From Eledone cirrhosa (lineage: Eukaryota): a stretch of 64,000 nt of DNA. The notes beneath the pieces were generated by a model. The model saw nothing but the letters and a program-made list of their open reading frames with translations, was not told where the DNA came from and made no database searches. The stretch is from assembly GCA_964016885.1 (NCBI GenBank), contig OZ024740.1:200012001-200076000 (forward strand). The letters run 5' to 3'. Numbering within the stretch: position 1 is the first letter of the stretch; every line of letters begins with the position of its first letter. Shown one piece after another: positions 2,479 to 60,920 of the stretch. A program made the position numbers and the translations under genes.

Positions 2479-3253
2479 GTTATGTAATAAACAACATAAG
2501 ATAATTATTTCATTTACCAGTGGTTTCTTGAAAGCAGATATATCTGTTTTCAGTCGTCAGACTGAATAAAACATGGTGTTCTTATTAAATATGGATTTGA
2601 AAAGAAAATATAAGACATATGAAAGTGAGGCTGAGGAAACAACGGGCGAAGAAGAAGGCAAAAAGGAATATATATATATATATATATATATATATATATA
2701 TACTATTTTACTCTTTTAATCTGTTACCTGTTCCAACCACAAATAAACAAACATACACACACTCAACCACGTGCATATACTTAAAAGTTACGTAGAAATA
2801 TGCTGTCACATAAGCGTATATGTATCAACCGACATGGATAAAATACATATACATACATATACATGAAGTAATAAGAATAAATAAATAAATGAATAAGAAC
2901 AAAAAATATTCAAAGTCAAAAATAAAATAAAATAAAATAAAATAGACAGGATGCGCTTTGACAACGATAAGAGAGAGGATTAAAAAAATAAAAATATACA
3001 AATACACGAGGTGTGTAATTACATAAAAATACAGTTACTTTCATATTTGTAATATTTTGTTTTCACATCCATATTTAATAAAAAAAAAAATACCATGTTT
3101 TATTCATTCTGACGACTGAAAACAGATATATCTGCTTTCAAGAAACCACTGGGAAATGAAATAATTATCTTATGTTGTTTATTACATAACTAATAACCTC
3201 TGTAACCTACATAGAGTACTCCTTTCTCCTGCACCTTTCCGACGGAATTACTT
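2479..3253 (+). mobile_element. Hammerhead-bearing inverted-repeat element in (TA)n
   Basis: Arms 2479-2577 and 3092-3190 are reverse complements; right arm ttcatt-CTGACGA-stem II-GAAA-ccactgg..aatgaa (3103-3160); left arm keeps the GTA triplet; unpaired tail 3191-3253. Confidence 0.75.
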
Positions 3254-3302
3254 ATATATTATACTATATTTATATATATATATATATATATATATTATAC
3301 TA

Positions 3303-3645
3303 TAAAATAAAGTTAAATAAAAAGTCAAGTCATTAAAATTTAGCTTCGTTTATTACTGCTATATATATTTCAGTGACAAGCATTTTTGGCTGTGACCTCT
3401 TCAGGCAGTTTTAATTATGGTATAGACAAGTACATACTTGTCTATACCATACTAATACAAACTGCCTGAAGAGGTCACAGCCAAAGATGGCTGTCACTGA
3501 AATATATATAGCAGTAATAAACGAAGCTAAATTTTAAACTTTATTTTACACTACTCCGGAGTAACCAAACCAACCTGCGCAGTTCGTCGAGTGCTCCAGC
3601 CTGCATACTGAGGTGTTGGTATACAAGCAACATAAACTCAAAATC
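3303..3645 (+). mobile_element. Palindromic hammerhead element (second copy at 48001-48280)
   Basis: Fold-back centred near 3432; actgc-CTGAAGA-ggtcacagccaaagatggctgtcact-GAAA-tatata-TA-gcagt at 3461-3515; tail to 3645; TA flanks. Confidence 0.85.
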
Positions 3646-3675
3646 TATATTATACTATATATATATATATATATA

Positions 3676-5925
3676 TACAATATTAAATAAATGGAAAACT
3701 ATATTTATAAAACCATATTTATTTCATTATATATATTTCGGGGATATCATATTAACAATATGCTATGCCTTCATCAGACAAAATACAATATAAACAGTTT
3801 TATAGATAAATATATTCGACATACCGTAATAAACATCAACTTCATTTGAAGAGGTTCACTCTAGCAGTGAAAATACAGAGAGAAAGAAAGAGAGAGAGAA
3901 AAGAGGGAAATAAGAAAGAAAGAAAGACAAAACGAAGAAAAGGAAGAAAAAGAAGAAAAAGAAGAAATGCATGGGACAAAATAGAGAGATGGAAAAATAG
4001 ATAAAGCGAAGAGCTTCATGTAAAGAGACCGAAAGATATATATATATATATAGAGAGAGAGAGGAAATAGAGATAGATACATATATAAATATAGATATAG
4101 AAAAATTAGGTAGTGGGAGGTCATTTTGAGTAAGTGTATCAATGATGCATTTATTTATTTATTTATTTATTTATTTATTTATTTAGCTCAAGTATTAATG
4201 TAAGGGAGATATAGAGAGATATAGAGAGATATATAGAGAGAGAAAAATTTAAAAATAGCCAGACATATTCGAGGCGTAGAAAACCCTATGTTTTAATGTA
4301 TTAGTATTTATAAAACTTACACTATATTGTAAATATCAGTATTCCTGAATGAAACAAGTATTCACAATGCGTGAAAATTCATTATCTTATGTTTAGTTTT
4401 TTAAAAAAATTCATATGTCTATGTGAATCCAACTGATTCACTCCGCAAATTCAAAGTTACCGGAAAACATTCTCAATGTGGTATAAACATTTGAGCGTAT
4501 TATTATTCTTGCGATTACTCTACAAGATTATCTATCAAGCAGAAATAGAGAGCAGATTTCAATATACTAATCGAAAATATATATTATATTATAAGCAGAG
4601 ATAACAATAATAATGATAATAAGTAAAAATATATAAAAATATAAAAATATAGAATAGAAAACTAAAAAAGAATATTACGAAAGAATATTACATAATAAAA
4701 ATATTGCATATTAAAAATACTACGTATTAAAAATATTACGTATTAAAACTTTACATATAAAAATATTAAAAATATTAAAAATATTAAAAATAAAAATTTA
4801 CATATAAAAAAAAAAAAAAAAATTTACATATAAAAATATTAAAAATAAAAATTAAATAAAATAAAAAATAAAAATATAAAAATATTATAGAATACTACAA
4901 TACTAAAAGAATAAAAATAAAAATACAAATAAAAATAAAAATAAAAATAAAAATAAAAATAAAAATAAAAATGAAAATAAAAAATAAACCACAAAGAACA
5001 ACCCTTCAAGGTTAATTGACAATATATTGCCAAGTTCACTACAAGACAAAGCCAAAAATTATCTATCAAATCACATCTAGCAAGGAATATCGCAAAAAAA
5101 GATTATGATGTCCAATAATGTCTACATATGTTCCTATATTTAATATATAAGTTTATCAAGTGTAAGGTTAATTCAGAAAATTTGTATTACTAATTATATG
5201 TAATGTTTCTTCTCTCTTCATAATGCACTAGGGTTTTCTACGCCTCGAATATGTCTGGCTATTTTTAAATTTTTCTCTCTCTATATCTCTCTATATCTCT
5301 CTATATCTCCCTTACATTAATACTTGAGCTAAATAAATAAATAAATAAATAAATAAATAAATAAATGCATCATTGATACACTTACTCAAAATGACCTCCC
5401 ACTACCTAATTTTTCTATATCTATATTTATATATGTATCTATCTCTATTTCCTCTCTCTCTCTATATATATATATATATCTTTCGGTCTCTTTACATGAA
5501 GCTCTTCGCTTTATCTATTTTTCCATCTCTCTATTTTGTCCCATGCATTTCTTCTTTTTCTTCTTTTTCTTCCTTTTCTTCGTTTTGTCTTTCTTTCTTT
5601 CTTATTTCCCTCTTTTCTCTCTCTCTTTCTTTCTCTCTGTATTTTCACTGCTAGAGTGAACCTCTTCAAATGAAGTTGATGTTTATTACGGTATGTCGAA
5701 TATATTTATCTATAAAACTGTTTATATTGTATTTTGTCTGATGAAGGCATAGCATATTGTTAATATGATATCCCCGAAATATATATAATGAAATAAATAT
5801 GGTTTTATAAATATAGTTTTCCATTTATTTAATATTGTAAATATACTCCAAGTATTTGTTGAGTGCTTTTATATCAGTTATAAATATTTACTAGTTGTAA
5901 CCCAACAATTTTAAATATAACTTTA
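3676..5925 (+). mobile_element. Large inverted repeat (about 610 bp arms) with hammerhead, PLE pseudo-LTR-like
   Basis: 3676-4288 is the reverse complement of 5229-5839 (same 93-aa ORF appears on both strands); hammerhead tattttgt-CTGATGA..GAAA-tatata-TA-atgaaata at 5730-5795; tail 5840-5925. Confidence 0.85.
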
Positions 5926-6281
5926 CATGTATATATATATATATATATATATATACATATTTATATATATATGCATATATACATATATATATATACGTAA
6001 AACATACACATACATAAAAACATTCACACACACACATATATATATAACTCACTGTGTGTGTATATATATATATATATATGTGTGTATATATATATGTGTA
6101 TATATATATATGTGTGTATATATATATATATATATATATATATATATATATATATATATATATATATATATATATATATATATACGCTAATATGTAGATC
6201 TGACTGACCAGGTTGTCTGCTAATATGCAAACCAGTCCGATCAGTCACTGTATATTTTCACTAGCTCTGACAGCTAAACAG

Positions 6282-59210: not shown

Positions 59211-59643
59211 ATATATATATATATATATATATATGTATATATATATATGTATATATATATATATATATATATGTATATATATATATATATATATATGTAT
59301 ATATATATATATATATATATATATGTATATATATATATATATATATGTATATATATATATATATATATGTATATATATATATATATATATATATATATAT
59401 ATATATGTATATATATGTATATATATATATATATATACATATGAAGATAGACTGCCAACGCTTCATGTTTATCTTTATTTTCATTCTTGTTTTTATTTTA
59501 TTTTTATCCTGTAACCTTTATATGTAAATTGCCATGCTATATCATTTGATGAATGTCACCCCACTGTTGATCAATGTGCGCATATGTTTTATATGTCTCT
59601 TGGGTTGAAAAGGAGGTCAAGTATGTTATAGATCAGTAAATAG

Positions 59644-59692
59644 TTGCTCCGAAGAATCCAAACCTCGGTTTGGAGGAAACAATTGTAAGCAA
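59644..59692 (+). ncRNA. Minimal hammerhead with one core substitution (within insert 59440-59900)
   Basis: ttgct-CCGAAGA-atccaaacc-tc-ggtttggag-GAAA-caattg-TA-agcaa, followed by aataaa. Confidence 0.75.
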
Positions 59693-59937
59693 ATAAATGA
59701 CTTAAACTGAACTTTGATTATTGTAATCTCTATATAACTGCTCTGTAAAACAACTGATGTTATTACATTGAGCTATTTATCTTACTGGTAATAGGATAGT
59801 AATTAATTACTATCTTTCACTATTTAAGGTTTGTGTATATATAATATATTTCCATTAAAGGTTCTATTGCATACATAACCATAAATAGTACCCTTAATAC
59901 TATATATATATATATATATATATATATATATATATAT

Positions 59938-60130
59938 TATAGAAGGAGCTTCTACAGGATTAGTACTGTTTCATTCAGATGAAATCTTCAGGAAGCTTCC
60001 TGAAGATTTCATCTGAATGAAACAGTACTAGTCCTGTAGAAGCTCCTTCTATAAAATAAAAAAATTTATTCTGCCATGTATTGAGTACCTTACTTACTGT
60101 GGTTATCCCCGACTCAACCCGGGACCTACG
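59938..60130 (+). mobile_element. Compact palindromic hammerhead element
   Basis: Centre aagctt near 59996; CTGAAGA 60000-60006, GAAA 60019-60022, GTC 60031-60033; tail with gtattgagtacc. Confidence 0.8.
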
Positions 60131-60719
60131 TATATATATATATATATATATATATAATTGGATATATATGTATATATATATATGTATATATATATGTATA
60201 TATATATATATATATATATATATATATATATATATATGTATATATATATAGATGTATATATATATATATATATATGTATATATATATATAGATGTATATA
60301 TATATATATATATATGTATATGTATATATATGTATATATATATATATGTATATATATATATATATGTATATATATATATATAGATATATATATATATAGA
60401 TATACATATATATGTATATATAAATATACATAAATATACACACACATATATATATATATATATGAAATATATATATACATATGTATATATGCATATATAT
60501 GTGTGTGTGTGTATTTATATATATATATATATATACATATATATTCTATTAAACACAGACACACAAACTTATATGTATAGAGAGAGAGAGAGAGAGAGAG
60601 AGAGAGAGAGAGAGAGAGAGAGAGAGAGAGAGAGAGAGAGAGAGAGAGAGAGAGAGAGAGAGAGAGAGAGAGAGAGAGAGAGAGAGAGAGAGAGAGAGAG
60701 AGAAGTTTGTGTGTTTGTG

Positions 60720-60920
60720 TGTAATAGAAGCTTGGCGGTTAATTCCATGTTTCGCCAAAACTGGCTGATAAAACTGTCAGACGACAAAGTGATATGACAG
60801 TTTGATGGGTTAGCTACGACGAAAGATTGAAGCAACTGTCAACCTGCTTGTAATAAATATATGTACTCTAGCAAGTATTGAGTCCTCTATAGCATATGCT
60901 CTACATAGATACGATACGTT
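60720..60920 (+). mobile_element. Degenerate hammerhead and tail fragment
   Basis: CTGATAA-aactgtca..tgacagtt hairpin, gaagcaactgtc, aataaa, then actc-tagcaagtatt-gagt-cctc. Confidence 0.45.

Follow-up and report, generated by a model that had tools for sequence, protein, structure and literature searches.

A bulged, duplicated hairpin in the tails and leaders of Hydra-clade Penelope-like elements of Eledone cirrhosa, a candidate cis-element

Introduction

The window analysed here is a stretch of 64,000 nt from Eledone cirrhosa (assembly GCA_964016885.1, 3.0 Gb; contig OZ024740.1, positions 200,012,001 to 200,076,000 of the forward strand) with a GC content of 36% and abundant (TA)n. Comparison of the window with itself showed many head-to-head repeats sitting inside microsatellites. 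Many of their one-sided tails carry a short bulged hairpin downstream of a hammerhead ribozyme, which we call H1, and a second copy beyond the end of the tail and before the ATG of the owner element is called H2. The owners that could be traced belong by their motifs to the Hydra clade of Penelope-like elements (PLEs). Hammerhead, inverted arm, tail and TA targeting have already been published for this clade; what we add is the bulged hairpin, its duplication and the location of element ends before each copy, which together make it a candidate cis-element. This bears on two long-standing questions, namely how the reverse transcriptase (RT) of PLEs chooses its template and why their insertions have a one-sided tail.

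Results and Discussion

The hairpins of the window

The sites are listed by position and strand, with the bulge in square brackets; ORF stands for open reading frame and stub for a short head-to-head copy.

3197..3220, plus strand: decayed H1 in a head-to-head stub tail, first outer-stem base altered (family copies GCTC-TGTA...TACA-[TA]-GAGC); inverted arm 2479-2626, hammerhead core 3109
3553..3595, plus strand: H1, ACTC-CGGA..TTCG-[TC]-GAGT; palindrome 3321-3547, hammerhead core 3466
5845..5867, plus strand: H1, ACTC-CAA..TTG-[TT]-GAGT; arms 3670-4288 and 5229-5845, hammerhead core 5738
6282..7190, plus strand: partial tandem of an ORF-less unit of ~600 nt with a variant hammerhead-like fold, H1 and H2
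6596..6658, plus strand: H1 of the ORF-less unit, GCTC-TGA..TCA-[TA]-GAGC
6764..6783, plus strand: H2 of the ORF-less unit, ACTC-CC..GG-[TC]-GAGT
14800..14822, plus strand: decayed H1 of a family with a 1-nt bulge; variant hammerhead core 14727
15348..15423, plus strand: H1, loop of 53 nt; belongs to the leader of the decayed Hydra element present in the window itself
15517..15537, plus strand: H2 of the same leader, GCTC-CC..GG-[TT]-GAGC, ~25 nt before the ATG at 15560
15560..17826, plus strand: broken Hydra-clade PLE ORF, RWK and DKT in the first 170 codons, remains of RT and GIY-YIG downstream
23759..23785, minus strand: H1, ACTC-TACT..AGTA-[TT]-GAGT; palindrome 23791-23913
39812..39834, minus strand: decayed H1-like site, inner stem broken, no arm and no core found; single copy in the DNA examined
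48187..48229, plus strand: H1 of the 3553 family; hammerhead core 48104
48650..48880, plus strand: control head-to-head stub, 57-nt tail without hairpin; its arm end matches the terminal signature of a non-Hydra PLE family
53327..53350, minus strand: H1, GCTC-TGTA..TATA-[TA]-GAGC; arms 53359-53568 and 53848-54058
54188..54217, minus strand: H1 whose outer stem has a C-C mismatch; palindrome 54218-54559, hammerhead core 54320
54679..54705, minus strand: H1 with compensated outer stem (GTTC/GAAC, TGCA/TGCA, [TT]); palindrome 54710-55022
58846..58873, minus strand: H1, ACTC-CAGT..ACTG-[TA]-GAGT; palindrome 58873-59223, hammerhead core 58980
59740..59776, plus strand: H1, GCTC-TGTAA..TTACA-[TT]-GAGC
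60068..60089, plus strand: H1, ATTC-TGC..GTA-[TT]-GAGT (ACTC in most family copies); palindrome 59922-60069, hammerhead core 60000
60865..60886, plus strand: H1-like site with a 2-bp inner stem, no arm and no intact core; single copy in the DNA examined

Twelve of these sites had been cited in a first-pass annotation as a CTC..GAG-TRCT motif in the tails of hammerhead repeats, and all 12 strings are present at their position and on their strand, so that we could confirm the tail motif as genuine. The annotation had missed six further sites (6596, 6764, 15348, 15517, 54705 and 59740) as well as the inner stem and the 2-nt bulge of the hairpin. Its pairing for 14806 was wrong, as copies of this family read ACTC-GTCC-NNN-GGAC-T-GAGT, and the 3' TRCT is not universal since CAC, CAA, TAT and AAC were seen too. 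The proposed location shortly before (TA)n holds in its distance, with GAG lying 41-69 nt before a microsatellite at 11/12 sites, but not always in the type of repeat: 48187 and 60865 adjoin TC or TG, and at 39812 the nearest clean repeat is 1194 nt off. The inverted arm does stop before the motif at 9/12 sites, ending at or up to ~9 nt before the hairpin (a partly deleted arm at 48187 is counted), while self-comparison gave no arm at 14806, 39812 and 60865. An upstream hammerhead core, located by a regular expression, was matched at 8/12 sites. Among the other four, the core at 53326 is mutated with an intact copy on the inverted arm at 53969, the core at 23759 is folded away with a variant core present in longer family copies, and the regular expression found none at 39812 and 60865.

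In order to see the motif outside the window we used a further 1.4 Mb of the assembly (locus labels L###), consisting of a working sample of 100 loci of 10 kb (L071-L170; 10 next to the window and 90 at even spacing) and a held-out sample of 40 loci of 10 kb (L171-L210). In the 1-Mb working sample GAGTRCT occurs 44 times at 40-69 nt before (TA)6+ in 941 flanks, compared to ~6 expected from a background of ~2 per 10-nt bin at 100-399 nt. The held-out 0.4 Mb gave 7 occurrences at 40-70 nt in 296 flanks, where 200 dinucleotide shuffles gave a mean of 0.6 and a maximum of 3. The positional enrichment that the first-pass annotation had named as a check is thus present in both samples.

Fold and covariation

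For a view of the tails that does not depend on the motif, palindromes were searched motif-blind. This gave 142 palindromes, from which 65 were kept as asymmetric: one arm directly adjoins a microsatellite, while the other overhangs by 30-250 nt (59 in the sample, 6 in the window). Of the rest, 13 adjoin a microsatellite with both arms, and 64 that fitted neither rule were discarded. The hairpin in their tails reads 5'-RYTC, an inner stem of 2-6 bp, a loop of variable length (3-57 nt), the partner of the inner stem, a bulge and GARY, usually followed by RCY. The bulge is located on the 3' side and consists of two bases (TT, TC or TA), or of one base in the 14806 family. A descriptor of this fold, composed after the tails of the 65 palindromes had been inspected, matches 29 of them from 12/34 families compared to 0.6 in shuffles. 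Frozen before its use on the held-out sample, it matched 3/8 held-out elements with 0.1 expected, one of them representing a new family. Across the whole sample a loose form of the descriptor gave many chance matches (125 clusters, mostly singletons) and was therefore applied only together with positional anchors.

We also selected sites in which pairing played no part, using the sequence anchor GAGYRCY at 35-80 nt before (TA)n. From 1237 flanks 91 sites in 28 clusters were obtained, 14 of which have RCTC upstream. An inner stem of at least 3 bp is found at a 2-nt 3' bulge in 8 of these 14 families, compared to 0-2 at each of seven other offsets. Anchors far from TA were tried as a control, which was not a clean one as 11/17 turned out to be hairpins of nested elements themselves.

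Among 20 natural copies whose rows had been chosen with the descriptor, double (compensatory) changes occur at 5/7 pairs, so that the outer and the inner stem covary across families; covariation was the second check named by the annotation. The outer pair is AU in 11 and GC in 8 copies and the second pair CG in 17 and UA in 2, and the covariation score of the same descriptor-chosen rows is 0.598 compared to 0.274 after shuffling. The pairs flanking the bulge (U-A and C-G) show no covariation in these copies. A covariance model built from the 20 rows finds 10 of the 12 cited sites at E values up to 5, six of them being training rows, and misses 14806 and 39812.

A second hairpin and the element ends

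The order in the leaders of Hydra-like elements is hammerhead, end 1, H1, end 2, H2 and ATG. This is best seen in the intact tandem element L291 of the 5845 family, as its terminal copy stops at (TA)n ~65 nt after H1, while the tandem junction reads on into H2, located 8 nt beyond the end of the terminal copy, and then into the ATG. We collected 49 leaders in 24 clusters and kept 13. The 11 dropped clusters have upstream DNA that looks foreign, inverted or like microsatellite (four still show H2), and a chimeric leader (L070) was swapped for that of L051. Six of the 13 leaders are close subfamilies, which leaves about six or seven independent lineages. By the descriptor at least two hairpins are present in 8/13 leaders, and the distance from the end of H2 to the ATG is 21-25 nt in most of them and ~50 nt in L193 and L074. 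The window itself holds two H1/H2 pairs, 15348/15517 and 6596/6764.

End mapping, which covers Hydra-clade leaders only, placed 134/156 (TA)n junctions 2-12 nt before a hairpin, with 12.5 expected from a uniform distribution, in a set that includes loci derived from searches. Restricted to the sampled 1.4 Mb and the ORF-less unit of the window, the number is 66/88 ends, compared to 6.7 expected uniformly or 13.4 if any TA/AT position were allowed. The offsets peak at 6-8 nt and most ends lie 4-10 nt 5' of the hairpin. Often they fall on a spot of the template reading TA or AT, and microhomology to the TA run at the junctions is 2.5 nt on average compared to 1.0 in simulations. The one-sided extension of the 65 asymmetric palindromes past the inverted pseudo-LTR (long terminal repeat) lies between the two end clusters of each leader, and the tails mostly measure 61-121 nt, reaching up to 179.

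Both hairpins are also kept in the ORF-less unit. The second unit of the tandem at 6282-7190 stops just before H1, and further partial tandems and arrays of the ~600-nt unit are present in L106 (942-2428), L005, L070 and L120, with the end located just before H1 in eight copies and before H2 in one. The unit looks like a Hydra-dependent retrozyme.

In L051 and its relatives a further descriptor match (ATTC/GAGT, 4-bp inner stem) lies ~180 nt upstream of H1 and overlaps a variant hammerhead. It may be a third copy of the hairpin or merely reflect ribozyme stems.

Owners of the tails

Seven of the 14 window families could be tied to an upstream Hydra-like ORF. For 3553 (in L019 and L006), 14806 (~370 nt beyond the ORF in L098), 15348, 23759 (in L124; the commonest family of the sample) and 59740 (in L072) the connection has no TA break; the very young 5845 family is connected via the tandem L291 and 53326 via a relative in the leader of the Hydra-like ORF of L091. 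Many intact relatives of the window ORF starting at 15560 are present in the genome.

RWK, DKT in place of DKG and CxCX5C in place of CX2-5CxxC have been described as marks of the Hydra clade (Craig et al. 2021, PMC8557442). By motif reading, L291 (736 aa) and L051 (794 aa) contain RT and, near the C-terminus, YIG/YVG motifs. L051 has RVRWK and ADKT, the window frame at 15545 RIRWK and ADKT, and L291 RIRWR and SDKT. The CxCX5C linker is present in L291, L124, L019, L091, L051 and L061 and was not found in the aligned fragments of L098, L006 and L072, and two non-Hydra families carry the CX2-5CxxC linker. Insertion into (TA)n and a hammerhead in the pseudo-LTR are present as well, several cores being variants and none reaching the Rfam gathering score. 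Pfam scans matched no family to the Hydra ORF of L051 or to the fragment. On these motifs we assign the elements to the Hydra clade of PLEs.

The hammerhead families had been called unrelated, which does not hold as every family with a traced ORF belongs to the Hydra clade. Their proteins are ~27-42% identical (40% between L291 and L051) and their tails fall into separate blastn clusters. The ties of the window families to Hydra ORFs and L291 thus show deeply separated branches within a single clade, and the majority of stubs represent ends of autonomous elements that were truncated.

A non-Hydra family with CX2-5CxxC (L236-L260), which we take as Nematis-like, has a hammerhead and ORFs of up to ~1200 codons, and the hairpin is absent from 25/25 of its shared 3' regions. 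Its terminal signature is shared with a stub family in which 0/5 tails have the hairpin. This signature of ~25 nt is present in 22/25 loci, and the stub at window 48650-48880 is among its carriers; possibly it serves as the own start signal of that clade. A Neptune-like family (L211-L235) showed scattered descriptor matches in 3/25 loci; the members of this family have sequence in common for 1.0-1.5 kb beyond the ORF, and their true end may lie outside the loci. The covariance model matched 24 of the 50 non-Hydra loci at scattered positions, several of these matches being nested Hydra stubs.

Besides, the 5845 family (window 5700-5925) has at least 39 further copies at 100% identity, and for the Neptune-like family 150 scored copies are 99-100% identical, which suggests recent activity of both. 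Hammerheads with an altered first core box or a very long stem II loop were seen in the 23759 family (L124, L178, L275), at window 6424-6517 and in the L051 leader. Stubs of the 23759 family fold back within stem II and therefore retain only the 3' half of the ribozyme.

Comparison with known systems

The elements resemble the published Hydra clade in their C-terminal GIY-YIG, (TA)n insertion, hammerhead in the pseudo-LTR, partial tandems, inverted truncated copy and one-sided tail, and differ in having tails longer than the 30-40 bp given there (PMC8557442). In the main text of that paper the words 'hairpin' and 'stem-loop' do not occur, and the relevant passages mention only the hammerhead. 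Among its six Hydra consensi (Craig et al., File S7), compared by eye, three from coral and sea cucumber contain the exact fold: Hydra-2_Amil and Hydra-2_Ajap have H1 at the 3' end and Hydra-1_Ajap has two copies before the ATG. By the same comparison Hydra-1_Crog shows mismatched variants only, and Hydra-1_Amil and Hydra-1_Obim no clean match. The first-pass annotation knew of no description of the motif, and none of the hairpin was found in the literature searched (subscription journals, Repbase notes and bioRxiv supplements lay outside its scope).

In several Hydra hammerheads of File S2 of Craig et al. stem III reads ACTC-N-GAGT, which are the letters of the H1 outer stem. The hairpin could conceivably have arisen when stem III was duplicated.

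Biochemical data on a PLE are available for PAc, a Poseidon element (Frangieh et al. 2024, PMC11167929). PAc cuts and extends both target strands, starts reverse transcription in vitro at two internal sites downstream of the hammerhead that bound the tail, and requires RNA sequence further downstream, where a protein-binding motif is assumed that was left undefined in the account given there. Hammerhead cleavage is not required and a dimer is predicted. Its starts lie inside the ORF in an AC-rich stem-loop, whereas those proposed here are located in the 5' leader, each shortly before a copy of the same defined hairpin.

A second parallel are the stringent long interspersed nuclear elements (LINEs) of the L2 clade, UnaL2, ZfL2-1 and ZfL2-2, and their partner short interspersed nuclear elements (SINEs). 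They have a bulged 3' stem-loop which is bound by the element protein, is required for retrotransposition and is common to the non-autonomous partners (PMC1636434, PMC4176376). Likewise, the hairpin here is a small bulged stem near the 3' end of the element. The L2 stem-loop is single, upstream of the start and copied, with specificity residing partly in the loop (PMC1636434, PMC4176376), whereas here two hairpins each lie downstream of their proposed start, H2 is not copied into the 3' end and the loop is free, and the RT is of the PLE/telomerase branch. By analogy we therefore regard the hairpin as a functional parallel of the L2 stem-loops and not as one of them. The ORF-less unit at 6282-7190 fits PLE-derived non-LTR retrozymes (bioRxiv 10.64898/2026.07.22.740005) and minimal PLE hammerheads (PMC4209133). 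Retrozymes are defined in that preprint by the hammerhead alone, with no downstream start-site signal named in the parts consulted.

Proposed mechanism and alternatives

The annotation had considered a cis-element for recognition by RT or endonuclease or for 3' processing. The cis-element part is supported by conservation in PLE tails, seen as enrichment, covariation and retention in the ORF-less tandem unit. With regard to its function, the addition of H2 and the mapping of ends just before each of the two hairpins make a putative role in choosing the start sites of the RT more likely than recognition by the endonuclease or 3' processing. We consider it probable that H1 and H2 dock the Hydra RT and set two internal start sites, and that the resulting truncated cDNAs are joined head to head. 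In such a model the RT-endonuclease protein would bind H1 and H2 of one read-through RNA and cleave both strands of (TA)n, and each 3'-OH would prime just upstream of a bound hairpin, assisted by UA pairing of 2-4 nt. The start before H2 would copy H1 and lead to the long arm with the tail, the start before H1 would lead to the short inverted arm, and linking of the two 5'-truncated cDNAs head to head would leave the stretch between the start sites as the tail. Starts lying before H1 and H2 would also account for the inverted arm stopping before the motif and for H2 being seen only at tandem junctions.

Several results weigh against this interpretation. The thermodynamic folds are weak (z-scores of -1.6 to +1.0) and in 2/5 the minimum-energy structure lacks the outer stem. 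The excess of G-U over A-C, which would be a sign of the sense strand, is 8 vs 3 per family (p 0.23) and 26 vs 10 per copy, and copies in one family are not independent. No hairpin was found in 22/34 palindrome families, both arms are flush with the microsatellite in 13/142 palindromes, and seven of the 14 window families (3198, 39812, 54187, 54682, 58845, 60078 and 60865) could not be tied to an ORF. Only one hairpin was detected by the descriptor in 5/13 leaders, and 22/88 ends lie away from hairpins, 12 of them in the L154 leader, which has an internal TA-rich patch and a decayed H2. Moreover, PAc is a Poseidon element and is reported to start without primer-template homology (PMC11167929), whereas short TA microhomology is seen here.

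The mapped ends would be equally compatible with RNA ends, and the hairpins might cause the RNA to be cleaved or terminated immediately before them, with the RT starting at an ordinary 3' end; read ends in PAc RNA-seq do coincide with its start sites (PMC11167929). We regard this as unlikely, because the long arm needs an RNA intact through H1 and the short arm one ending before H1, that is two differently cut templates per insertion. PAc also starts internally on longer templates in vitro (PMC11167929), and Rfam at the gathering score gave 0 matches across the window and thus no catalytic family. Rather improbable is an action of the motif as DNA, with the GIY-YIG endonuclease recognising it or its single-stranded hairpin and trimming an intermediate ~7 nt upstream. 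For Drosophila Penelope, recognition by the endonuclease is reported to depend on the tail (Pyatkov et al., cited in PMC11167929), Craig et al. attribute the tail to endonuclease resolution (PMC8557442), and the G-U bias is not significant. Yet RYTC and GARY are 3 to >50 nt apart, and together with the paired inner stem and the one-sided bulge this variable spacing suits a single-stranded fold and not a duplex site; as H2 is missing from terminal copies, its action would moreover require an intermediate that extends beyond the insert.

The close spacing of H2 to the ATG in most leaders could point to translation or packaging signals, by which the protein binds its own mRNA near the start codon while TA-rich spots favour priming nearby, in line with the TA microhomology at the ends. 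As the sole explanation we hold this to be very unlikely, since ends before hairpins are five-fold above the TA/AT prediction (66 vs 13.4), the wider spacing in L193 and L074 departs from the rule, and the ORF-less unit retains both hairpins; an additional role in translation may exist. Neutral shared ancestry or chance, with the motif as a remnant of one ancestral element, would agree with all ORF-linked families being of the Hydra clade. It is largely refuted and has next to no probability in our view, as double changes keep the pairing despite the divergence of proteins and tails, and the same fold is present in the coral and sea cucumber consensi. An antisense self-priming model has also been proposed (PMC3846280). 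Two other candidates were rejected: a selenocysteine insertion sequence, compared by its consensus, as there is no UGA-containing ORF, and a viroid-like rod RNA, as the fold-back point of the palindromes varies and the palindromes are explained as inverted truncated copies.

More tentatively, and with docking at two start sites still as the preferred reading, H1 and H2 might act together as a portable ruler with two sites, used by a dimeric RT related to telomerase. One active site would be held at each hairpin, and the cut (TA)n end would align with a short UA stretch located ~7 nt upstream of it; both strands would in this way be primed on a single RNA. If true, a hammerhead-H1-H2 cassette of 150-250 nt would suffice to turn any RNA into a template, and the PLE tail, the head-to-head insertions and the ORF-less retrozyme-like units would be explained by one model.

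PLE RTs are the closest mobile relatives of telomerase, and an RNA docking element would therefore bear on the origin of telomerase-type template selection. It would also be relevant for the design of templates for PLE-based gene insertion. The earlier in vitro study found two internal starts with the RNA signal undefined (PMC11167929). A short covarying hairpin that is duplicated and keeps a fixed distance to both ends indicates precisely which bases to mutate, and L291 and a family with an 808-codon ORF provide young intact elements.

Other repeats of the window

Another hammerhead-bearing repeat family is present at window positions 8412-9492 (cores at 8737 and 9273), 46645-46824, 49036-49184 and 51172-51327. 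Its palindrome at 9047-9492 has a 93-nt tail with GCTC...GAGT and without a clean inner stem. Three decayed copies of a non-LTR element with RVT_1 lie at 25140-37900. A further non-LTR fragment with zf-RVT at 41849-43105 adjoins ACAT repeats and has what we take, from its motif, to be a restriction-like endonuclease.

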